Source of the DNA: Microcoleus sp.
GTDB taxonomy: Bacteria; Cyanobacteriota; Cyanobacteriia; Cyanobacteriales; Microcoleaceae
NCBI GenBank assembly: GCA_042408215.1
Contig: JAYFMW010000008.1
Coordinates: 192,001-256,000, forward strand
Direction: 5' to 3'
DNA length: 64,000 bases
Translations under genes and position numbers: made by a program
Notes under the pieces: model-generated
The model's database searches: none
What the model saw: the letters and a program-made list of their open reading frames with translations, nothing else
What the model was told of the DNA's origin: nothing
In this document: positions 1-35,357 of the stretch, piece by piece
Layout of the letters: the number at the start of each line of letters is the position of its first letter
Position numbering within the stretch: the first letter of the stretch is position 1

Positions 1-3000
1 AGGAATCAGTTGCGTTGCATTAGCAAGATTATTGCTGCCCCGATCGACATTTGTTTGAGGAATTCCAGGGACTTTCACCGTAGGATGAGTCGGATCTCCT
101 GGTAACTGCTTGGCGATCGGATGTTGAGAAATGAAGACATCGGTAATACTTCGCTGTCCGGGTTTAAGCGTGTAAAGTTCCGGTATAGTTACCTTTGCCA
201 ACTGCACCGCAGCCGCCACATTCAGCAAGCCAGACCCAGTTTGAGCGTCCCAATTAGGTCGATCGAGGTCTGTAGCAGTACGCTTGATAATGTCAATTGC
301 CTGAGTGTAATTCAGCTTGGGATTTGCTGCTAAAATTTGGGCGATCGCATTCGTGACTTCAACAGCAGCAACCTCTGTGCTGGATGTATTGCCACTGCTA
401 CCGTTAGCGAGAATATCGAGAGTATTGCCGCTACCGGAATAATCTGCCAATTTAAAGGCATTGGATAGTGCAACGGAATCGTTAAATCGTTGAGCCGCAC
501 CGACAGTAACTACGTTGTCAACTTCCTTAGATAATAGACCGAGAGCCGACATTGTGCCTGAGTTATCTCCAGCGGGAACAACAACAATAACATTGTTCTG
601 ATATGCGTAGGCGATCGCCGATCGTTCTGCTGCCGTTAATTCCTTGCGGGGAATCACAGTTCCATCAGGCTGAGTTTGAGTCAGGTTGATGTTAATATTA
701 ACAACGGCATGGGGTTGCTTCGATACCTTAGCAGCATCCACAAATTTAATCAGAGATTCTACCCACTGACTCGAATTATCTTGAGTGCGATCGACTGGCT
801 GCGACGGGTTATTTGTGCTATTTTCTGGTTTTTCCCCTGCAACAATCAGACTCTTTTCCTCAGCAGGATTATCGACAGTCAAGCCAGTATCGTTGATAAA
901 ACCGACCAAAGGGCGATTTTCGACAGGAAACTCAAATTGTACTGCTTCGACTGGTTCGACTGGTTTAGGTTCGACTTTCACAACCATATCTTCCAGCCGC
1001 GAAATCAACGCCGCTGTATTATCCGAAATAGGATTCGAGCCAGTTTGCTCCCTCAACTTCTCAGTCATGGCTTCCAAACGAGCAATCGAAGTGCGATCGA
1101 TCGCATTTTCGGCAACAACATCAGCACCACCCAAATTACTCAAACGCTGTTTAATGCTATCCAATCGCGCAATCCAATCAGCATTGACATTATTATTGTT
1201 TTGTGCTAATTCCTGCTTAACCGATTCAGTCACCGCCGCAGTCGAATTATCCTCAGTTGGTTTTGCAACAGTTGGAGAAATTGGCAATAACTCTTTTGGT
1301 GCAGCATCATTAACACCAGCAGTCTCAGTCTGAGTAACTATCTCCTTGTTCCGCAAGTCTACAGCAGTATTCGTACCTACAACTGGCATAGTTTTCGCTG
1401 CTGTCGGCGGCACAATCGCTGGAGTTTCTTTACTCTCAACCGCCGCTGTTGGCTGACTTTCCTTCACCGACTCTACAGGATTTGCGGCTACAACAACTTG
1501 AGTAGTTTCAGTTTTCTCTACCTCAGTTACTAAAGCCGGCTTTGTTTCTACCTTTGTCAGACTTTCCGCTGGCAAAACTGATGGCTTTGTTTCTACCTTT
1601 GTCAGACTTTCCGCTGGCAAAACTGACGGCTTTGTTTCTACCTTAGCCTGACTTTCCGCTGGCAAAACTTCGGGTTTAGTCTCTACTTTTGTCAGACTTT
1701 CCGCTGGCAAAACTTCGGGTTTAGTCTCTACTTTTGTCAGACTTTCCGCTGGCAAAACTTCGGGTTTAGTCTCTACTTTTGTCAGACTTTCCGCTGGCAA
1801 AACTTCGGGTTTAGTCTCTACTTTTGTCAGACTTTCCGCTGGCAAAACTTCGGATTTAGTCTCTACTTTTGTCAGACTTTCCGCTGGCAAAACTGACGGC
1901 TTTGTTTCTACTTTCGCCTGAGTTTCCGCTGGCAAAACTTCGGGTTTTGTTTCTACCTTTGTCAGAGTTTCCGCTGGTAAAACTGACGGCTTTGTTTCTA
2001 CTTGTGTCAGAGTTTCCGCTGGCAAAACTTCGGGTTTTGTTTCTACTTTCTCAGTTGGTATCGTTGCAGCAACTTCCGTCTCAGTAGTAGATTGAGCTGG
2101 CAAAGTTGGCATCGCTGGTGCTTCGGTAACTTGGTCTTTTACCTCAGTTGTCGCTGCGGGAATAGGCGTTTTTTCAACTGGTAAATTTTCAGTCGAATCC
2201 GCCACAGTATCTTTGCCAGCAGTTGGTGTAGTTGTCGCACCTGTTGTCGGATTTGCATCTACCTTGTCGGTAGTTTCAACCTGAGTCGAATCACCCGAAT
2301 TATTCGCAATATCTTTGACTTTTTCCTCAGTCGTCACCGCTGGAGTAGTAGGCTTTGCATCTACCTTGTCGGTAGTTTCAACTTGAGTCGAATCACCCGA
2401 ATTATTCGCAATATCTTTGACTTCTTCCTCAGTCGTCACCGCTGGAGTAGTAGGCTTTGTATCTACTTTGTCGGTTGTTTCAACTTGAGTCGAATCACCC
2501 GAATTATTCGCAATATCTTTGACTTCTTCCTCAGTCGTCACCGCTGGAGTAGTAGGCTTTGCATCTACCTTGTCGGTAGTTTCAACTTGAGTCGAATCAC
2601 CCGAATTATTCGCAATATCTTTGACTTCTTCCTCAGTCGTCACCGCTGGAGTAGTAGGCTTTGCATCTACCTTATCCGTTGGTACAATCTTGGTTGCATC
2701 AGTAGTATTGGTGTCGGTATTTGCGACAGGCGCTGGAGTTTTTGGAGCCTCTTTATCTGAAGTTGATGGATTCAGAATTTCCGTTTCTAAATCATCAAGT
2801 AAATCCGATAATTCAGCATCTACATTTGGTTTTGGTTCCGGGGTAATGTAAGGTTTCGCATAAGCAATAAGTGCCTTGCCCAAATCAGTTTTCCGCCAAT
2901 CTTTATCCGGGTTAATCGAAGTATCCAACAAAGCAGTTGTTGCCGTCGCACCCCGCACTTGGAAAATGATATCATTATAATCCCTGTCAGTCCCCGAATC

Positions 3001-4737
3001 TAACCGCATATCCTCCATAACAAAGGTATTGCCTTCTCCCGTGAAATCCGCAATTTGACCAAAGTGAAATCCCTCCACAGGATTCGCCATAGCCATAGAA
3101 AATAAAGGACGTTGAGCACCCCCAATAGTCGGATTATCAAACACAGACTTTACACTACCATTGGGTATCAACATCACCCCATATTTACCCCCTGGAGTTA
3201 CCGCAAAACTCTTGACTCCTAAGTAGGCTCCTTCATTAGCATTACTCTCTCCTAACACACCAGAAAACCGCGCACCTTCTGTAACATCATCAATCACTAC
3301 ATGACCTTTCACAGAGTTACTTAAAGAACGTGCAGCTACTTCTTTAATGAATGCTTCCGAACCAGGTTCAAATTTCTCTAATCCGTCCAAACTGAAAAGA
3401 GCTAACTCACCTTGGAACATCCCACCATCAAATGTGTAGTCTACACGAATTTGACCACTTTGATCCGTAGTAAATATCCCCGATGTAAATGGAAAAATTA
3501 ACTTTTTGTCCGTAGTTTGTTCTAGTTCTTTTGTGGTTTCAGCAGTCGGTATTGAAGTATTTGCATTCTCTGTTTTGGTGTCTTCCCCGTTGCTGGTGGC
3601 GGTATTCGGTTTGTCCCCTGGCTTGGTGGCATCTGGGGAAGTAGCAACTGGTTTGTCGGTAGTTGCTGATGTTGTTGCAGCCGCAGATTCAGTCGCGGCT
3701 ACAGGTTTTTCCGGTTCCGATGTGAGAGTTGTTTCGGAGGTTGTAGCAACTGGTTTGTCGGTAGTTGCTGATGTTGTTGCAGCCGCAGATTCAGTCGTGG
3801 CTACAGGTTTTTCCGGTTCAGATGTGAGAGTTGTTTCGGAGGTTGTAGCAACTGGTTTGTCGGTAGTTGCTGATGTTGTTGCCGCCGCAGATTCAGTCGC
3901 TGCTACAGGTTTTTCCGGTTCAGATGTGAGAGTTGTTTCGGAGGTTGTAGCAACTGGTTTGTCGGTAGTTGCTGATGTTGTTTCCACCGCAGATTCAGTC
4001 GCAGCTACAGGTTTTTCCGGTTCAGATGTGAGAGTTTTTTCGGAGGTTGTAGCAACTGGTTTGTCGGTAGTTGCTGATGTTGTTGCAGCCGCAGATTCAG
4101 TCGCGGCTACAGGTTTTTCCGGTTCAGATGTGAGAGTTGTTTCGGAGGTTGTAGCAACGGGTTTGTCGGTAGTTGCTGATGTTGTTGCAGCCGCAGATTC
4201 AGTCGCGGCTACAGGTTTTTCCGGTTCAGATGTGAGAGTTGTTGCGGAGGTTGTAGCAACTGGTTTGTCGGTAGTTGTTGATGTTGTTTCTGTTGTTTCT
4301 GCGGTGACAGTCTTGTCATCAACAGGAGCTCCTGTAATTACATCTTTGTTGGTAGTGGGTTTTTCCGAAGTTGTGGTGCTGTTTGAGGAAAGTGGATCAT
4401 CTGATTTTGCGCCGGTGAGGGTGTCTGCGTCGGATGCTGGTTTAGTGCTAGCTGGTGCTAAATTCAGCGTGTATTTGATGTCGCCAGTTATCGGCAAAAC
4501 TTTGACTGGATAGTCTCCGGCTACTAAGCTGTCAGCGCTAATTGTTTCTGCACTGGTTCCCGCGTTGGTGGAAATGTAACCTGTTGCGCCGCTATTGTTT
4601 GACAATAATACGTCGGCATTCCCGCTTAAAACGTTGGGGGAAAATTCAAAAATTTTGGGAGTGTCGATATTTGTAGTGCCAACACTACCTGTGTAGGTTG
4701 TGCTGCCAGTCAATGCCCCGATGTTAAGTTCAGCCAT
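1..4737 (-). CDS. Large repeat-rich surface/secreted protein (PPC-like N-terminus, T/A/P/E-rich repeats, DUF4114-like domain, subtilase-like domain); 3' end runs off the window
   Basis: Absent from the ORF track because it has no stop in the window. ATG at 4737 (MAELNIGALTGSTTYTGSVG...). Segments translated by hand give ...FVMEDMRLDSGTDRDYNDIIFQVRG (DUF4114-like, ~2850-3500) and ...VIVVVPAGDN...NVVTVGAA...ILAANPKLNY...TATDL...GSGLLNVAAAV (S8-like, ~200-800). Confidence 0.8.
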   Translation of the reverse strand, partial: MAELNIGALTGSTTYTGSVGTTNIDTPKIFEFSPNVLSGNADVLLSNNSGATGYISTNAGTSAETISADSLVAGDYPVKVLPITGDIKYTLNLAPASTKPASDADTLTGAKSDDPLSSNSTTTSEKPTTNKDVITGAPVDDKTVTAETTETTSTTTDKPVATTSATTLTSEPEKPVAATESAAATTSATTDKPVATTSETTLTSEPEKPVAATESAAATTSATTDKPVATTSEKTLTSEPEKPVAATESAVETTSATTDKPVATTSETTLTSEPEKPVAATESAAATTSATTDKPVATTSETTLTSEPEKPVATTESAAATTSATTDKPVATTSETTLTSEPEKPVAATESAAATTSATTDKPVATSPDATKPGDKPNTATSNGEDTKTENANTSIPTAETTKELEQTTDKKLIFPFTSGIFTTDQSGQIRVDYTFDGGMFQGELALFSLDGLEKFEPGSEAFIKEVAARSLSNSVKGHVVIDDVTEGARFSGVLGESNANEGAYLGVKSFAVTPGGKYGVMLIPNGSVKSVFDNPTIGGAQRPLFSMAMANPVEGFHFGQIADFTGEGNTFVMEDMRLDSGTDRDYNDIIFQVRGATATTALLDTSINPDKDWRKTDLGKALIAYAKPYITPEPKPNVDAELSDLLDDLETEILNPSTSDKEAPKTPAPVANTDTNTTDATKIVPTDKVDAKPTTPAVTTEEEVKDIANNSGDSTQVETTDKVDAKPTTPAVTTEEEVKDIANNSGDSTQVETTDKVDTKPTTPAVTTEEEVKDIANNSGDSTQVETTDKVDAKPTTPAVTTEEKVKDIANNSGDSTQVETTDKVDANPTTGATTTPTAGKDTVADSTENLPVEKTPIPAATTEVKDQVTEAPAMPTLPAQSTTETEVAATIPTEKVETKPEVLPAETLTQVETKPSVLPAETLTKVETKPEVLPAETQAKVETKPSVLPAESLTKVETKSEVLPAESLTKVETKPEVLPAESLTKVETKPEVLPAESLTKVETKPEVLPAESLTKVETKPEVLPAESQAKVETKPSVLPAESLTKVETKPSVLPAESLTKVETKPALVTEVEKTETTQVVVAANPVESVKESQPTAAVESKETPAIVPPTAAKTMPVVGTNTAVDLRNKEIVTQTETAGVNDAAPKELLPISPTVAKPTEDNSTAAVTESVKQELAQNNNNVNADWIARLDSIKQRLSNLGGADVVAENAIDRTSIARLEAMTEKLREQTGSNPISDNTAALISRLEDMVVKVEPKPVEPVEAVQFEFPVENRPLVGFINDTGLTVDNPAEEKSLIVAGEKPENSTNNPSQPVDRTQDNSSQWVESLIKFVDAAKVSKQPHAVVNININLTQTQPDGTVIPRKELTAAERSAIAYAYQNNVIVVVPAGDNSGTMSALGLLSKEVDNVVTVGAAQRFNDSVALSNAFKLADYSGSGNTLDILANGSSGNTSSTEVAAVEVTNAIAQILAANPKLNYTQAIDIIKRTATDLDRPNWDAQTGSGLLNVAAAVQLAKVTIPELYTLKPGQRSITDVFISQHPIAKQLPGDPTHPTVKVPGIPQTNVDRGSNNLANATQLIP
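1541..2050. repeat. Coding tandem repeat, 45-bp unit (15 aa), about 11 copies
   Basis: Unit TTTGTTTCTACCTTTGTCAGACTTTCCGCTGGCAAAACTGATGGC recurs every 45 nt with variants. Confidence 0.95.
2257..2672. repeat. Coding tandem repeat, 102-bp unit (34 aa), 4 copies plus a partial
   Basis: ATCTAC(C/T)TT... unit starts at 2257, 2359, 2461, 2563, 2665. Confidence 0.95.
3641..4290. repeat. Coding tandem repeat, a second 102-bp unit, about 6.3 copies
   Basis: GTAGCAAC(T/G)GGTTTGTCGGTAGTTG unit starts at 3641, 3743, 3845, 3947, 4049, 4151, 4253. Confidence 0.95.
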
Positions 4738-5595
4738 TGGTACCCCTGAAAAATAGTTGCTGAAAAGTGTTCCTAAATGTATATCTGGGGGAACTTGAGG
4801 TTTTTATTCAAATTCCGGGATATTGTTACATAACTTTATATTTGGGCTGCCCGATCGCCCAAAATTTGCCATCTACCCGGCCTTGAATTTACCGGATTCA
4901 GTTGCTTCAAACTCTTGTGGGGTGGGCTTCTAGCCCGCCCAAAACTGCAATGCAAATACAGCCAAGCTGAGTTGCGCTATTTGTAGTATCAACACTACCT
5001 GTGTAGGTTGTGCGGCCAGTCAAGGCCCCGATGTTAAGTTCAGCCATTGGTACCCCTGAAATAGTTGCTGAAAAGTGTTCCTAAATGTATATCTGGGGGA
5101 ACTTGAGATTTTTATTCAAATTCCGCAAAATTGTTACATAACTTTATATTTGGGCTGCCCGATCGCCCAAAATTTGCCATCTACCCGGCCTTGAATCCAC
5201 CGGCTTCAGTTGCTTCAAACTCTTGTGGGGTGGGCTTCTAGCCCGCCCAAAAGTGCAATGCAAATACAGCCAAGCTGAGTTGCGCTATTTGTAGTGCCAA
5301 CACTACCTGTGTAGGTTGTGCGGCCAGTCAAGGCCCCGATGTTAAGTTCAGCCATTGATACCCCTGAAATAGTTGCTGAAAAGTGTTCCTAAATGTATAT
5401 CTGGGGGAACTTGAGGTTTTTATTCAAATTCCGCAAAATTGTTACATAACTTTATATTTGGGCTACCCGATCGCCCAAAATTTGCCATCTACCCGGCCTT
5501 GAATCCACCGGCTTCAGTTGCTTCAAACTCTTGTGGGGTGGGCTTCTAGCCCGCCCAAAAGTGCAATGCAAATACAGCAAATCTGAGTTGCGATT
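4671..5595. repeat. Tandem triplication (~309 bp) of the upstream region and first ~23 codons of the large surface-protein gene
   Basis: Near-identical units start at 4671, 4981 and 5289; minus-strand ATGs at 4737, 5047, 5355. Confidence 0.95.
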
Positions 5596-5785
5596 GAGTG
5601 TTGAAGGGGCTAAAACTCTTGATGCTGAAGCAATTTTCGGACTAAACGATCGACACGGACAACGCTATACCGTAGACTTGGAAATTATGGGAGTACAAGG
5701 ACAGCAGGAGATTGTCCGTACAGGTTGGATCGTAGAACCAGGCAGTAATGGGGCGAGACTGGTAACACTATTCGTTCGGAGGTAA
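5590..5785 (+). pseudogene. C-terminal fragment of a DUF6883-like putative toxin
   Basis: HGQRYTVDLEI.G...IVRTGWIVEPGS...RLVTLFV resembles the DUF6883 C-terminus; the 5' part is replaced by the third repeat copy; a DUF4926 gene follows. Confidence 0.6.
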
Positions 5786-5793
5786 GCACGATC

Positions 5794-6099
5794 GTGCCAG
5801 AATTATTTGATGTAGTTGAATTGTTAGTAACATTGCCTGAATCTAATTTACACCTAGGTGTTAGAGGGGCAATTGTTGATTGTTATTCAGATGGAACTTA
5901 CGAGGTAGAATTTAGCGATCGCTCTGGTGAAACTAGAGCTTTGTGTACTCTGTCATCCGAGCAACTTTTAGTTGTTTGGAAGGCTAAAGAAAGGCGTTGG
6001 TTGTCTGTATCGGAGCTATTAGCTGCGATGGTTGAACGTTTGTCTGATGAACGTCAGCAACAAATTTTAGAGTTTGCGCGTTCTGTGTCTCAGAAATAG
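5794..6099 (+). CDS. DUF4926 domain protein
   Basis: ELFDVVELLVTLPE..L..G.RGAIVD.Y....YEVEFSD..GET.A motif. Confidence 0.8.
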   Translation: MPELFDVVELLVTLPESNLHLGVRGAIVDCYSDGTYEVEFSDRSGETRALCTLSSEQLLVVWKAKERRWLSVSELLAAMVERLSDERQQQILEFARSVSQK

Positions 6100-28296: not shown

Positions 28297-28450
28297 ACAA
28301 CGCCCGGAAAGAAGTTCGGCAACGTATGCAAGTAACGGATACTTGGACTTCGCTCAGTACAAGTGTAATGGAGGTCAGAAAGAAGGAAGATGGAAGTCGG
28401 AAAAAGGAATTACCAATTACCAATTACCAATTACCAATTGCCAATTACCC

Positions 28451-29173
28451 ATGCACAATATACCCGTTGTCTCTATTCAAAATCTCAACCATTCTTTTGG
28501 TGAAGGTCAACTTAGCAAACAGACATTATTTGACATTAACCTCGAAATTTATCCCGGCGAAATCGTGTTAATGACCGGGCCTTCTGGGTCTGGAAAAACA
28601 ACATTGTTGACCTTAATTGGAGCTTTGCGATCGATCCAAGAAGGTAGCCTGAAAATTCTCGATCAAGAATTGCACGGATCGCGAAAAAATAAATTAGTAG
28701 AAGTTCGCCGCGACATCGGCTATATTTTCCAAGCTCATAACTTGCTCAAATGCTTGACTGCGCGGCAAAATGTGCAAATGTCTCTCGACTTGCACAACCA
28801 TCTTTCGGACCAAGAAACTAATGATAAAATAGAAGGAATCCTGGAAGCTGTGGGGTTGGGAGAAAGAATAGATTATTACCCAGACAGTCTTTCCGGCGGA
28901 CAAAAACAAAGAGTTGCGATCGCCCGCGCATTAGTCAGCCAACCCAAATTAATATTAGCCGACGAACCGACAGCAGCTCTAGACAGCAAATCCGGTCGAG
29001 ATGTGGTGGAAATCATGCGAGGTTTAGCCAAAGAACAGCATAGTACCATCTTGCTCGTCACCCACGATAACCGGATTTTAGACATAGCCGATCGCATCAT
29101 CCACATGGAAGACGGGCACCTCGCACAAGACACAGCGACGCCAGCTACAACAGGCGTTCTTTCCGGCAAATAA
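28451..29173 (+). CDS. devA: DevA-family ABC transporter ATPase
   Basis: GPSGSGKTT, LSGGQKQRVAIARAL, LADEPTAALD; ATG at 28451 follows STRR repeats. Confidence 0.93.
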   Translation: MHNIPVVSIQNLNHSFGEGQLSKQTLFDINLEIYPGEIVLMTGPSGSGKTTLLTLIGALRSIQEGSLKILDQELHGSRKNKLVEVRRDIGYIFQAHNLLKCLTARQNVQMSLDLHNHLSDQETNDKIEGILEAVGLGERIDYYPDSLSGGQKQRVAIARALVSQPKLILADEPTAALDSKSGRDVVEIMRGLAKEQHSTILLVTHDNRILDIADRIIHMEDGHLAQDTATPATTGVLSGK

Positions 29174-30471: not shown

Positions 30472-33400
30472 GTGACCTACGAACCCCTCCACCACAAATA
30501 TCGCCCCCAGAGCTTTGCCGAATTAGTCGGTCAAGAGGCGATCGCCCAAACCCTCACCAGCGCCATCCTGCAAGATCGGATAGCACCAGCATATCTATTT
30601 ACCGGCCCCAGAGGCACCGGTAAAACCTCTAGTGCTAGGATTTTTGCGAAATCCCTCAACTGTATTTCTACCGGCGCTCCCACCCCGACACCCTGCGGCA
30701 AATGCAACGTTTGTCAAGAAATTGCCAGAGGTTCCACACTAGATGTCATCGAAATTGACGCCGCCAGCAACACAGGAGTAGATAACATCCGAGATTTGAT
30801 TGAACGGGCCCAATTTTCCCCGGTGCAATGCCGCTATAAAGTATATGTGATCGACGAGTGTTTGACTGGTGATTCTCAGGTGCAAACTAGCGAAGGTCTA
30901 ATCCGCATAGATAATCCCAAAATCAAAGGAAAAAAAGTCCTCAGCTATAACGAAAGCTCAGAAGTTTGGGAATTTAAAAAAGTTTTAAGGTGGTTAGAAC
31001 AGGGTGAGAAACCAACACTGGTTATTAAGACGAGCCATCGAGAAATCAGATGCACCGGCAATCACTTAATCAGAACCGAACAAGGATGGATACCAGCAAA
31101 AGACGTAAAAGAAGGAGTGAAGATACTATCCCCTGTGAATGTGGGTGCGGCACCCTCATTCACAAAATTGGAACAGATGGACGCTTGCGGAGATTTGCCA
31201 GAGGACATCAATTTTACGGGAATACCTACGGACAAAAATCCTACGACTTGGCCTCTATTCTCGAACAGGCTCAAGCCATCCGACCTCTCTGTGCGTGTGG
31301 CTGTGGAGAACAACTCGAAATACCAGACTTTTTACAAAAAAAAGGCAAAGGGATTAAGAGCATTCAGTCTCATTGGCCGCGACATCCCTATAAAAAAGGA
31401 CATGGACTTTGGGATGCAAGAACGGAAAAGTTCTTGGCAAATGCCGAAGTTTTGCAACCAGAAACACTCGGACTCATTTACGGAACATTGCTTGGAGACG
31501 GTTCTATCACATACCCAAATAAATATAGCCGATTTCCAAGATTGGGCTGGACACACGGAGAAACGCAGCGGGAATGGTTGGAATACAAAGCCTCTTGCCT
31601 TTCGACACTGCGACCAAATTTACGAGTTACACCTAACCAAGGATACGGAAATATATCAGTCTGTTGCAACACAGTCTGCCATCCCCAACTTAGAGATGTC
31701 TTTGACGCTGTTAAACCCAACGGAAAAGGAAAATACGTCACAATGGATTGGCTCGATTGCATCACTCCCGAAGGACTTACTTGGTGGTACATGGATGATG
31801 GAGCGCTCAGCATTTCGCCAGAAGGAAGTCCAAATATTCAAATTCATACAGAAGGATATTCTGGGGAAGAAAATCAACTCATTGCCAAGTGGCTTACAGG
31901 CTTGGGATACCCAACAACAACCAAGTTTTACACAAGGTCTAACACAGGTAAAACCTACCACTACATACATATGGGCGCTGAAACCAGCAGAAAATGGGTC
32001 GCAGACTTTAAACAGTATTCAATCCCTTCAATGGATTACAAATTCGGAGAAGGTAGAATCTGTAAAAGTCGTTGGGGTAGAGAAAGTTTATGACATAGAA
32101 GTAGAAGACAACCATAACTTTGTCGCTAACGGTCTTCTGGTTCATAATTGCCATATGCTAAGCACCCAGGCATTCAACTCTCTCTTAAAAACCTTAGAAG
32201 AACCACCAAATCGCGTCGTCTTCGTCCTCGCAACAACGGACCCTCAAAGAGTCTTACCAACCATTATTTCCCGCTGTCAAAGATTCGATTTCCGCCGCAT
32301 CGCCCTCCACTCAATGACCGCCCACCTGCACAAAATCGCCCAATTAGAAAATATCAATATTGCCAGCGACGCAGTACAAATGGTTGCTCAACTAGCCCAA
32401 GGAGGACTGCGAGATGCCGAAAGTTTGCTCGATCAACTGAGCTTATTTCCCGGTGAAATCACAGTCGAAAAAGTTTGGGATTTAGTCGGCGCAGTCCCCG
32501 AAAACGACTTAATGGAACTGCTGCAAGCTATTGACAAAGACGACGCTACAGCCTTAGTAGACATGACCCGTCACCTGATGGATCGCGGCCGAGAACCGCT
32601 GATTGTACTTCAGAATCTCGCCAGTTTTTACCGAGATTTGTTAATAGCCAAAGCAGCACCAAAACGGTCAGACTTAGTAGCTTTAACCAGCGGAACTTGG
32701 GAGAAACTTTGCAATTTTGCCCGCCATTGGGATGCCGAGTTAATTTTGGCTGGTCAGAAACACTTGCAAACCCACGAAGTGCAAATTAAAAACACCACTC
32801 AGCCACGTTTGTGGCTGGAAGTAACGCTATTGGGATTATTACCCTCAGCCATTAGAACTCAGCAGCAACCAGCAAATAAACCAGCACAAAATACTAATCC
32901 AGCACAAATTCACCCCCCCCAACCCCCCCTTGCTAAGGGGGGGAGTCAGATATCTAATATTGCAGAATCTTCAATTCCGAATGTGCAACATCCTCCGACG
33001 ACTTCGCCGCCTATTGCTAATCGCACAGAAAACACATCTACCGCACCGATTCGAGAACCTATACCAACCGCTGAAACTAATTCTTTTTCCACTAACTCAA
33101 CCAATATTACACCGGATGAAATTGATCTAAATCGAGTGTGGGAACAGGTACTTGCTCGCGTGCGACCCCACGGTACTCAATCGCTGCTTCGCCAACATGG
33201 ACATCTAGTAAGTTTTAGCAATGATACTGCTTCTGTTAACATTAATTCGCCGCAGTTGCTCAAGATGGTTAAAGACAAAGTAGCTAATATTGAAGAGGCT
33301 TTTTTGCAAATCTTTAACCGTCGAGTCGCAGTGCAATTGGGTTTAAAGAATTCTAATCAAACTAATAGTTTAGAACCCAAGGATTTGCCAACTTCTAACG

Positions 33401-33831
33401 GAGGTGTTGGCGAAAATTCTCGGAATTTTAATCCTGTGGGTGATGCTAATCAACAGGTGCAGAATTATGGGAATTATGGGAGTTCTGAGATTCCTGATAA
33501 TTTGTTGAGGAATGGGGGAGAAGCACAAAAACAGTCGCCAGCCCCTGAAAATAATAGCGCCAAGCTGTCAAATGTTTCTGAACCAGTCCGGCCGAACAAT
33601 GGGTCGATCGCCTCTGGGAATAGCTCTAACCTTGAGGCTGTAGGGATACGCGCTGACGCACAAGATGTAGTCAATTCCGCTAGGGTGTTGGCTGAAATGT
33701 TTGACGGGGAAGTAGTCGATTTGTCAAATGAGTTAGAGATTTGGGAGTCGCAGAGTTTTAACTTGGAATCTGAACCGGATTTTCCTGAGTTATCTTCTGA
33801 GTCCGATCGGGATGATTTCGTCGATTGGTAA
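30472..33831 (+). CDS. dnaX: DNA polymerase III subunit gamma/tau, intein-containing
   Basis: LHHKYRPQSF, GPRGTGKTS, EIDAASNTGVD, YVIDE|intein|CHMLSTQAFNSLLKTLEEPP. Confidence 0.98.
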   Translation: MTYEPLHHKYRPQSFAELVGQEAIAQTLTSAILQDRIAPAYLFTGPRGTGKTSSARIFAKSLNCISTGAPTPTPCGKCNVCQEIARGSTLDVIEIDAASNTGVDNIRDLIERAQFSPVQCRYKVYVIDECLTGDSQVQTSEGLIRIDNPKIKGKKVLSYNESSEVWEFKKVLRWLEQGEKPTLVIKTSHREIRCTGNHLIRTEQGWIPAKDVKEGVKILSPVNVGAAPSFTKLEQMDACGDLPEDINFTGIPTDKNPTTWPLFSNRLKPSDLSVRVAVENNSKYQTFYKKKAKGLRAFSLIGRDIPIKKDMDFGMQERKSSWQMPKFCNQKHSDSFTEHCLETVLSHTQINIADFQDWAGHTEKRSGNGWNTKPLAFRHCDQIYELHLTKDTEIYQSVATQSAIPNLEMSLTLLNPTEKENTSQWIGSIASLPKDLLGGTWMMERSAFRQKEVQIFKFIQKDILGKKINSLPSGLQAWDTQQQPSFTQGLTQVKPTTTYIWALKPAENGSQTLNSIQSLQWITNSEKVESVKVVGVEKVYDIEVEDNHNFVANGLLVHNCHMLSTQAFNSLLKTLEEPPNRVVFVLATTDPQRVLPTIISRCQRFDFRRIALHSMTAHLHKIAQLENINIASDAVQMVAQLAQGGLRDAESLLDQLSLFPGEITVEKVWDLVGAVPENDLMELLQAIDKDDATALVDMTRHLMDRGREPLIVLQNLASFYRDLLIAKAAPKRSDLVALTSGTWEKLCNFARHWDAELILAGQKHLQTHEVQIKNTTQPRLWLEVTLLGLLPSAIRTQQQPANKPAQNTNPAQIHPPQPPLAKGGSQISNIAESSIPNVQHPPTTSPPIANRTENTSTAPIREPIPTAETNSFSTNSTNITPDEIDLNRVWEQVLARVRPHGTQSLLRQHGHLVSFSNDTASVNINSPQLLKMVKDKVANIEEAFLQIFNRRVAVQLGLKNSNQTNSLEPKDLPTSNGGVGENSRNFNPVGDANQQVQNYGNYGSSEIPDNLLRNGGEAQKQSPAPENNSAKLSNVSEPVRPNNGSIASGNSSNLEAVGIRADAQDVVNSARVLAEMFDGEVVDLSNELEIWESQSFNLESEPDFPELSSESDRDDFVDW
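30859..32148 (+). mobile_element. DnaX intein, 430 aa
   Basis: Starts CLTGDSQV, block B IRCTGNH, ends VYDIEVEDNHNFVANGLLVHN followed by extein Cys; inserted in the Walker B motif. Confidence 0.97.
31050..32093 (+). CDS. LAGLIDADG homing endonuclease with two CxCGCG motifs, encoded out of frame inside the intein
   Basis: 347-aa ORF offset +2 from dnaX; IYGTLLGDGSI and LTWWYMDDGAL helices; CECGCG and CACGCG; alternative start ATG at 31086. Confidence 0.9.
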   Translation: MHRQSLNQNRTRMDTSKRRKRRSEDTIPCECGCGTLIHKIGTDGRLRRFARGHQFYGNTYGQKSYDLASILEQAQAIRPLCACGCGEQLEIPDFLQKKGKGIKSIQSHWPRHPYKKGHGLWDARTEKFLANAEVLQPETLGLIYGTLLGDGSITYPNKYSRFPRLGWTHGETQREWLEYKASCLSTLRPNLRVTPNQGYGNISVCCNTVCHPQLRDVFDAVKPNGKGKYVTMDWLDCITPEGLTWWYMDDGALSISPEGSPNIQIHTEGYSGEENQLIAKWLTGLGYPTTTKFYTRSNTGKTYHYIHMGAETSRKWVADFKQYSIPSMDYKFGEGRICKSRWGRESL

Positions 33832-33956: not shown

Positions 33957-35312
33957 TTAAGCTGACTCCGGTTTTGGTAGGGAAGACGGAAGTACCAACA
34001 ACTCAGCAGTCGATCGCTTCTCGACCATTTCCTTAGTAATCATACACCGAGTGACATCCTTGCGCGACGGCAACTCATACATGACATCCAACATCAACTC
34101 TTCGACAATTCCCCTGAGTGCCCGCGCCCCAGTTTTGCGTCGGTATGCTTCCTGGGCGATCGCCCGAACTGCATCCATCTTAAACTCCAACTGCACATTA
34201 TCCATCTTCAGCAGCTTTTGATACTGCTTAACCAAAGCATTACGCGGTTCCGTCAAAATCGCCATCAGCGTTTCCTCATCCAGGGGGTCTAACACCGCAG
34301 CCACCGGTACCCGCCCAATAAACTCAGGAATCATCCCAAACTTCACCAAATCATCCGGTTCCAGTTGCTTGAGTACATCAGCAGCCCGCTTTTCCTTCGG
34401 CTGAGCTTCTCCCGGCTGAATAAAACCCATTGACTTTTTACCCGTTCTCTGCTCTATCACTTTTTCCAGACCGACAAAAGCCCCACCGCAGATAAACATG
34501 ATATTGCTAGTGTCAATTTGGATGCAGTCTTGATAGGGATGCTTGCGGCCGCCTTGGGGAGGTACATTGGCGATCGTCCCTTCCAGCATCTTCAACAGCG
34601 CCTGCTGCACCCCTTCACCCGACACATCCCGCGTAATCGAAGGATTTTCGCTCTTACGAGCAATTTTGTCAATTTCATCAATATAAATTATCCCGCGCTG
34701 CGCCTCTTCCACATCCATATCTGCCACTTGTAGCAGGCGCAGCAAAATATTTTCCACATCTTCCCCAACGTAGCCCGCTTCCGTCAGCGTCGTCGCGTCA
34801 GCCACCGCAAATGGCACATCCAGCATATCTGCCAAAGTCTGAGCCAGCAGAGTTTTGCCACAACCAGTCGGCCCGATTAACAGAATATTGGACTTTTGCA
34901 GTTCTACTTCTTCCGGTGGGTGCTTGCCGCTATTTTTGCTATGAATAAAACTCAGGCGCTTGTAGTGGTTGTAAACCGCCACCGACAACACCTTTTTCGC
35001 CTCATCTTGGCCGATGACATTTTCGTCGAGATAATTTTTAATTTCCCTCGGCTTCGGAATTTGGCTCATCGAGATACTTTTGCCGGAATTAGCACGGCGC
35101 TTTTGGGTCGTTTCCTGCTTCGGAGGCTTCGGAGGCGTCGCCGCCGCCGCCGGCACTGCACTAGAGTCAAACAACTCCTCATCTAAAATTTCATTGCACA
35201 AGTCAACACATTCATCACAGATATAAACCCCAGGCCCTGCGATCAACTTGCGTACCTGCTCTTGAGACTTGCCACAAAAGGAACATTTTAGATTGGAGTC
35301 GTATTTAGACAT
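33957..35312 (-). CDS. clpX: ATP-dependent Clp protease ATPase ClpX
   Basis: [39 protein letters not shown]. Confidence 0.98.
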
Positions 35313-35357
35313 AACAGCCGATACTTTTTTGCTAACGTTTACTAACAAACACATAAG

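Follow-up and report, generated by a model that had tools for sequence, protein, structure and literature searches.

A LAGLIDADG homing endonuclease gene overprinted in the +2 frame of a dnaX intein from Microcoleus sp.

An out-of-frame nuclease within the Ssp DnaX intein was reportedly described by Gorbalenya in 1998 under the title "Non-canonical inteins", as cited in two preprints. The closest described system is that of Phillips, DeSimone and Gogarten (bioRxiv 10.64898/2026.09.14.751524, September 2026). The available portions of their preprint present the same open reading frame (ORF) at +2 in dnaX, with AlphaFold3 models, a comparison with the structure 6X1J, FUBAR omega values in both frames (123 sequences), phylogenies, and coexisting alleles; they attribute the first proposal to Gorbalenya 1998 and the intein to Liu 1997. 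Here we analysed a stretch of 64,000 nucleotides from Microcoleus sp. (assembly GCA_042408215.1, contig JAYFMW010000008.1, positions 192,001 to 256,000), which we call the window, and in which dnaX carries an intein that overlaps a homing endonuclease (HE) gene in another frame. As an element it has been described before, and the central observation is in print. The window shares with the element of Phillips and collaborators the host gene, the insertion site, the +2 ORF, the fold, the selection in two frames, and the patchy occurrence with mini-inteins and empty alleles; there was no difference in kind, and the window holds a copy from another species. A sequence-only reading of the window had named a similar layout for the Synechocystis DnaX intein, and the cited literature agrees with it.

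Taking into account the evidence given below, we hold with good confidence that the window carries a full-form cyanobacterial class-1 dnaX intein and, overprinted on it at +2, a LAGLIDADG gene of the free-standing type, which would be internally initiated and whose free protein would be responsible for homing. All features of the element lie on the + strand and positions are those of the window. The dnaX precursor ORF (DNA polymerase III gamma/tau) runs from 30472 to 33831 and encodes 1119 amino acids (aa), including the intein. It was matched by the NCBIfam model PRK14948 (E 4.7e-246) in two stretches that flank the intein, with residues 130-556 skipped. The intein, recognised from the sequence and from Pfam and NCBIfam, occupies 430 stop-free codons (30859..32148): Cys1 (30859) follows ...YVIDE, the intein finishes with ...GLLVHN at 32148, and Cys+1 (CHMLS) is located at 32149. 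The insertion site is the Walker-B DE/C(H) site of dnaX (the slash marks the point of insertion), and the same site was used in related loci. A scan of a genome collection gave 152 relatives of the nuclease, from which the best 80 were kept; all 80 were cyanobacterial according to their titles, with nucleases 61-99% identical to that of the window, the closest being in records titled Microcoleaceae or Microcoleus. An intein of 430 codons, identical in length and place, was found in 62 of 80 loci.

In the intein frame, Intein_splicing was the sole family matched by Pfam, at both ends (E 1.5e-17, 64.3 bits, cut-off 35.8), and NCBIfam recognised intein_Nterm TIGR01445 (34.3 bits, cut-off 24.5) and intein_Cterm TIGR01443 (39.4 bits, cut-off 15.6). 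The residues expected in a class-1 intein, that is, C1, the block-B TGNH at residues 66-69, the final ...VHN, and Cys+1, were present and invariant in 28 sequences. A HINT fold was recognised from these profile scores, from the alignment with PDB 7CFV (E 1.4e-37), and from the ends being modelled confidently as beta structure. The N-terminal splicing part (residues 1-95; 30859..31143), defined by the 7CFV alignment and by the AlphaFold2 (AF2) model, includes block B and a Gly-Trp pair, and its predicted local distance difference test score (pLDDT) was 76-89 over residues 1-90. The C-terminal splicing part (residues 397-430; 32047..32148), ending in VYDIEVEDNHNFVANGLLVHN, corresponded to residues 104-137 of 7CFV with pLDDT 70-90. 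Considering that the frame stayed open in all 79 loci compared of this single-copy replication gene, the intein is presumed to be active in protein splicing.

The second gene is located in the +2 frame over the middle of this intein. The full ORF (31050..32093) has 347 aa and an offset from dnaX of (31050-30472) mod 3 = 2, while the conserved HE gene extends from an ATG at 31086 to the TGA at 32093 and encodes 335 aa; its assignment is based on Pfam, PHROG, AF2 and selection by frame. Pfam LAGLIDADG_2 (PF03161) matched residues 142-283 of the ORF with E 5.6e-20 and 72.4 bits (cut-off 25), and PHROG 11023, "homing endonuclease with LAGLIDADG motif", matched with E 5.7e-16. Motif 1 (LGLIYGTLLGDG, with its acidic Asp; 31467..31502) had Y, G, T, L, L, G and D invariant in 26 sequences, and motif 2 (LTWWYMDDG, with its acidic residues; 31776..31802) had Y, D, D and G invariant in the same set. 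The G-D of motif 1 and the D-D-G of motif 2 were invariant both in these 26 sequences and in a set of 42. Two motifs, each ending in an acidic residue, are what is expected of a double-motif LAGLIDADG monomer. The AF2 model, obtained with 42 aligned sequences, reached a pLDDT of 87.1, and the closest PDB structures were I-WcaI (6X1J) and I-SceI, with Foldseek probability 1.00 and E from 1.4e-11 to 1e-10. Over approximately 215 columns the template modelling score by target was 0.72-0.75, and it was possible to see the doubled alpha-beta-beta-alpha-beta-beta-alpha fold.

Ahead of this fold, the N-terminal ~125 residues of the HE are formed by two modules, each with Cys-x-Cys-Gly-Cys and a later His, whose C, C, G, C and H show little or no variation among the 42 sequences. 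Module 1 (CECGCG; 31134..31151), with its conserved His 20 residues on, was defined on that alignment, and module 2 (CACGCG; 31290..31307) on the sequence and the alignment. The number of CxCGC modules among relatives ranged from 1 to 5. It is possible that these Cys3-His modules are a zinc-dependent aid to DNA binding. As a candidate family for them we considered DUF6527 (PF20137), which was rejected, the score being 15.5 bits (cut-off 23.6) with 13 residues matched to a profile of 63 positions; the cut-off was passed by the five-module relative P0024 alone (33.4 bits). The nuclease is single-copy in the genome of the window. No Pfam match at E up to 0.1 was obtained for the other ORFs of the region, four of them antisense and one in the third frame.

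In order to compare selection in the overlapping frames, we used two gap-poor alignments, one of 22 Microcoleus-type and one of 28 Nostocales sequences (L106, at a contig end, was left out). The minimum number of substitutions was counted by dnaX codon position, and the ratio of nonsynonymous to synonymous changes (dN/dS) was calculated by the Nei-Gojobori method as ratios of means. In the N-extein, the substitutions at dnaX positions 1/2/3 were 11/5/100 in the Microcoleus set and 58/39/240 in the Nostocales set. In the overlap with the nuclease ORF they were 61/177/99 and 190/490/263, and in the part of the intein 3' of the nuclease stop they were 4/2/18 (18 of 24 at position 3) and 8/4/31 (31 of 43), respectively. 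The main site of change was thus position 3 in the exteins and intein ends and position 2, which is position 3 of the HE, in the overlap. The dN/dS of the nuclease frame was 0.21 in the Microcoleus set and 0.18 in the Nostocales set, while for the same bases it was 0.96 and 1.10 in the dnaX frame and 1.28 and 1.35 in the third frame; the exteins gave 0.085 and 0.063. Purifying selection maintains the nuclease frame, and the intein frame over the same bases is neutral. This result independently reproduces the finding of Phillips and collaborators.

The neutral stretch coincides with a part of the intein that showed no structure. In the AF2 model of the 430-aa intein (28 aligned sequences), residues 1-93 and 392-430 were confident, and residues 94-391 had pLDDT below 50 with no secondary structure. 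Because the dN/dS of the dnaX frame was 0.96-1.10 and no fold was predicted, this linker (residues ~96-396; 31144..32046) is constrained only to stay free of stops. That constraint was clearly visible. When the HE protein was fixed and its synonymous codons were redrawn from local usage, 10.8 dnaX-frame stops were expected over the nuclease with a minimum of 3, and none of 5000 resamplings was stop-free, versus 0 stops observed. In relatives of the nuclease that are free-standing, the corresponding frame contains 8-12 stops. The middle ~300 codons are a neutral, non-folding, stop-free read-through and no domain. True dual coding is restricted to ~35 codons, with ~20 at the 5' end (residues 76-95) and 16 at the 3' end (residues 397-412). 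At the latter end, the C-terminus of the HE (...GRICKSRWGRESL and its stop) overlaps the first codons of the C-terminal splicing part (32047..32093), as seen from the translation and the 7CFV alignment. At the 5' end, entropy in the first 30 nucleotides after the ATG was low at all three codon positions (0.54, 0.41 and 0.48). From these results, several statements of the sequence-only reading held: that the intein frame is stop-free for 430 codons, that its middle looks off-frame and has no endonuclease motifs, that the +2 frame encodes a complete LAGLIDADG enzyme with two CxCGCG motifs at 31050-32093, and that this ORF overlaps both splicing halves. The frame-specific dN/dS that it had proposed as a check revealed the purifying selection on the nuclease. 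Its statement that about 1 kb is constrained in two frames had to be abandoned.

An explanation of the layout by artefact, in which compensating indels would mask an in-frame endonuclease domain, had been named by the sequence-only reading as what would overturn it. We found nothing in favour of this explanation and count it as refuted. With L156 excluded for having no exact anchor motif, 79 of the 80 best loci were used for frame counts, and in all of them the dnaX frame was open across the whole region and the nuclease was at the +2 offset, as it also was in two phage loci. The HE frame had at least 324 codons in 68 of the 79 loci and was shortened to 65-296 codons in the other 11; the third frame was open for just 15-89 codons. 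The longest +2 open run in the window, 354 codons, compares with a mean of 54.5 and a maximum of 146 when the codons of the intein were shuffled 5000 times. The switch in codon-position periodicity is, moreover, an evolutionary property and not one of a single assembly. Contigs assembled from RNA libraries (runs X1, X2, X3 and X9) covered parts of the intein and nuclease region, and those of run X1 were gap-free over 31049-31321 and 31437-32400. Two side observations concern changes of frame in other copies. A contig of run X9, ~92% alike, has one base missing at 31032 and one added after 31036, a compensated shift of a few bases that lies, in a relative, just upstream of the HE start. Protein P0054, from a contig of 2269 bases, has the N-part of a cyanobacterial dnaX and an intein frame that switches midway into the nuclease frame, which points either to an indel in a copy that is decaying or to a misassembly.

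A key aspect of this arrangement is how the nuclease would be translated. The start-site comparison comprised the window and 79 loci, that is, 80 rows. In 79 of them (the exception being L138) an ATG is present exactly 16 codons before the first CxCGC, within GG-ATG-G, the codons of Gly76-Trp77 of the intein (31084..31089), and the six bases were all invariant among 72 unique sequences. The entropy at dnaX position 3 was 1.15-1.20 in the 60 nucleotides before this ATG, then 0.48, then 0.30; therefore, the constraint of the HE frame starts at ATG 31086. Upstream of it, the variable sites follow the dnaX frame and there is no HE-frame constraint. The other start offered by the sequence-only reading, ATG 31050, located 28 codons ahead of the first Cys, was found in Microcoleus-like rows only, and the clade-specific extension of 12 codons that it adds (31050..31085) probably lies outside the conserved HE protein, judging from the alignment. 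In the window, the HE-frame stop ahead of this extension is the TAA at 31026-31028. Of the two starts proposed, it is 31086 that is favoured. An AGGA element is present at -14..-11 of the ATG in 49 of 79 rows.

That reading had also left open whether the nuclease is produced by internal initiation or by frameshifting. The nuclease frame is -1 relative to that of dnaX, and a programmed -1 (equivalent to +2) frameshift would give a fusion of N-extein, N-terminal intein half (IntN) and nuclease; such a fusion is possible in principle, as the metagenomic proteins P0081 and P0088 have these three parts in one frame, and a heptamer of the slippery type was seen in 12 of 79 rows. However, in 41 of the 79 rows the nuclease frame has a stop one to four codons before the conserved ATG, no slippery heptamer (X XXY YYZ) was conserved across the 79 rows or occurred in the open stretch of the window, and the nuclease-frame constraint begins at ATG 31086 and not earlier. 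We regard frameshifting as very improbable.

It is common for free-standing endonuclease genes of phages to possess promoters of their own, and by analogy the nuclease could be expressed from its own transcript, started inside dnaX, rather than on the dnaX messenger. The matter is also discussed in the available portions of Dassa et al. 2009 (PMC2677866). No sigma-70-like site was detected on the + strand between 30137 and 32119 in a weak scan that did not cover other types of promoter, among them further cyanobacterial ones, and in the whole 2.3 kb there were 2 such sites versus 3.4 expected by chance. Upstream of the ATG there was no conserved element of non-coding appearance beyond what the dnaX frame demands. 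A separate transcript seems unlikely to us. The likeliest mechanism, and in our view a fairly probable one, is that translation starts internally on the dnaX mRNA, at 31086.

The proposed course of events is as follows. The splicing parts (residues 1-95 and 397-430) are joined by ~300 off-frame read-through codons of the nuclease gene. The nuclease would be translated on its own from the ATG within the Gly-Trp codons, most likely off the dnaX mRNA, and would act as a free protein of 335 aa, perhaps assisted in DNA binding by its two Cys3-His modules. It would cut dnaX copies without intein, and repair would copy the whole intein in. DnaX, for its part, would be produced by reading through the nuclease gene, after which the intein with its unstructured loop would be spliced out.

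The occurrence of the element was examined in related genomes. Among 121 sampled genomes of the family, 30 have the HE; within the genus, with the genome of the window excluded, the count is 20 of 55. Some genomes keep only its ends, as in G040, where just residues 1-30 and 302-335 are left. Of 401 genomes sampled from the phylum, 47 gave a match to the N-terminal splicing part; 35 of these matches were strong and the weaker ones were other inteins. The 33 regions taken from them comprised 8 full inteins, 17 mini-inteins (129-259 aa), 4 other or intermediate forms, and 4 that were not located by the pattern. Intermediate inteins of 181-339 aa without nuclease motifs were observed at L264, L267, L268, L272, L280 and L286. 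The inteins of intermediate length look like partial deletions between the full intein and the mini-intein. In all five genomes of the genus that lack the HE and were inspected, dnaX was intein-free (...VIDE/VHMLS...); these alleles (L246-L250, in G067, G049, G004, G030 and G054) have Val (GTT) at the position of the +1 Cys (TGC) of the occupied allele. This patchy occurrence agrees with the description of Phillips and collaborators. The same genus also has shorter, extra dnaX-like genes, likewise intein-free (G067:C146, G004:C113, G030:C36, G030:C93 and G004:C103), with open frames of 312-555 aa that are 43-61% identical to the exteins; they may be paralogues or copies on mobile elements.

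Several of our observations weigh against an internally initiated and homing nuclease. The window has AGAA in place of AGGA, and no Shine-Dalgarno-like core was found in it at -20..-5 of ATG 31086. The conservation of the GGA codon for Gly is not specific to nuclease-bearing alleles, since GGA was present in 8 of 8 full inteins and also in 13 of 15 mini-inteins without nuclease (among the 33 regions, a site was not recognised in 4, nor a Gly-Trp match in 2 minis). The 11 loci of 79 with a broken HE frame indicate that the nuclease is dispensable and able to decay. The intein-free alleles L246-L250, besides having Val in place of Cys at +1, carry several more silent differences from the occupied allele within 30 bases of the site. 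The assembled RNA contigs are uninformative on transcript starts, strand, expression, or the stretches that they do not cover, and the end of one contig at 31049 is likewise without meaning.

Some of these observations would be explained if the +2 ORF were here a silent relic, intact and no longer expressed or active, the selection signal coming from past homing in the lineage. The broken frames, the deletion derivatives of 129-339 aa, and the absence in the window of the AGGA element are compatible with it, and it would fit the decay within the homing cycle that is discussed in the available portions of the 2026 preprint (bioRxiv 10.64898/2026.09.14.751524). On the other side, the ORF of the window has full length and keeps all the invariant residues of the family, dN/dS was 0.21 even among closely related Microcoleus-type sequences, and intein-free alleles in the same genus mean that targets exist. 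A relic is in our opinion quite unlikely, and an active, internally initiated nuclease remains our preferred reading.

The same nuclease family was also found outside cyanobacterial dnaX. Two viral contigs (L006:2949-5708 and L007:3072-5672) have a ResIII helicase-like gene with an intein at ...ADE/C or ...TDE/C, and in both a nuclease of this family with two CxCGC modules is overprinted at +2 (ORFs L006:3761-4807 and L007:3851-4897). They come from 84 viral loci, in 34 of which a LAGLIDADG pair was found by regular expression, the other 50 being unclassified and not negative. The 34 classified loci comprised these 2 overprinted ones, 22 with a canonical in-frame nuclease, 1 in frame with the C motif only, and 9 others; none of the 22 in-frame viral loci had CxCGC modules.

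A further form of the family was seen in metagenomic clamp-loader loci with fractured genes (L167, L168, L171, L172, L175, L180 and L202), which use the same DE/C...HN/CH site. Their ORFs are ordered as N-extein with IntN, a separate nuclease with 3-4 CxCGC modules, and the C-terminal intein half (IntC) with C-extein; in L185 the pattern of the C-part was unmatched. The three ORFs of L171 are located at 2959-3699, 3709-4776 and 4769-5968, and the outer two matched the DnaX halves of the window across the same junction (E 8e-28 and 3e-23). In L167, L168, L171 and L172, ORFs 1 and 2 are in one frame with a single stop between them. Half-fused proteins complete the picture: P0081 and P0088, which end at the nuclease stop, have the N-extein, IntN and nuclease in one frame, and P0067 has the nuclease, IntC and C-extein in one frame; the three are known from proteins alone, as scans of viral and metagenomic contigs gave relatives that were more distant.

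As far as the sequences go, the overprinted, half-fused and split-intein states suggest one nuclease lineage with its own start at one clamp-loader Walker-B site. It is possible, although we advance it only tentatively, that the overprinted dnaX intein is the still-joined member of one evolutionary series (overprinted, half-fused, fractured). If this series were true, the read-through linker alone would separate the two architectures, and one nonsense mutation in its ~300 neutral codons would be enough to convert a cis-splicing intein to a natural split intein, which would offer a way for split inteins to arise or to be joined again. The fractured clamp-loader relatives suggest how contiguous and split inteins interconvert.

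The locus offers a clear natural example in which an essential gene has to be read through a selfish gene in another frame, with a visible cost, as the codon choice of the nuclease must avoid the ~11 stops expected in the host frame. In annotation, a nuclease gene so placed is easily overlooked, and the middle of the intein should not be called an endonuclease domain. Considering that the putative start is inside the Gly-Trp codons, a single change silent for the intein would be a simple genetic handle to separate homing from splicing.

The neighbouring genes were judged ordinary from translated motifs only. Upstream there is a putative ABC-transporter ATP-binding protein (28343-29173, + strand) and downstream, on the opposite strand, a putative ClpX-like ATPase (33957-35354, - strand).

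By comparison with known systems, the present analysis adds to the work of Phillips and collaborators the evidence on the start site, the overprinting of the family in phage helicase inteins, and its occurrence as an ORF of its own, at the same site, in clamp loaders that are fractured. In the available portions of their preprint there was no mention of the Gly-Trp start codon, of the onset of constraint at the ATG, or of the fractured and phage-helicase forms; its authors state that they came across no in-frame relative, whereas some of the proteins seen here have the nuclease fused in frame to a single half. The Spl DnaX mini-intein (PDB 7CFV, 137 aa) is orthologous, its residues 3-95 and 104-137 corresponding to residues 2-94 and 397-430 of the window intein, but it is without the ~300-codon linker and the nuclease gene. 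The fractured genes of Dassa and collaborators (2009, PMC2677866) have the arrangement that is shared by the metagenomic clamp-loader loci. The window differs from them, as its host frame is continuous, with 0 stops in 430 codons, which corresponds to a cis-splicing intein. In the available portions of that work the nucleases are of GIY-YIG and Vsr-like types, and a term search found neither "DnaX" nor "LAGLIDADG".

With I-SceI and I-WcaI the HE of the window has in common the fold and the two acidic motifs, at an identity of just 17-20%; these enzymes are intron-encoded and lack the ~125-residue N-terminal region with the two CxCGCG-His modules. The non-canonical inteins of actinobacteriophages (bioRxiv 10.1101/2025.01.02.630785), as described in the available portions of that preprint, have a nuclease in another frame or strand of the intein middle, and the origin proposed for them is invasion by a free-standing endonuclease gene. 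The nuclease of Synechocystis dnaX is labelled there "anti-sense", whereas in the window and in the available portions of the 2026 preprint it is on the sense strand at +2. Finally, in canonical inteins such as PI-SceI and PI-PfuI, the HINT domain is interrupted by LAGLIDADG coding sequence at the same structural position as in the window. The nuclease is in those inteins an in-frame domain, whereas in the window it would be a separate translation product.

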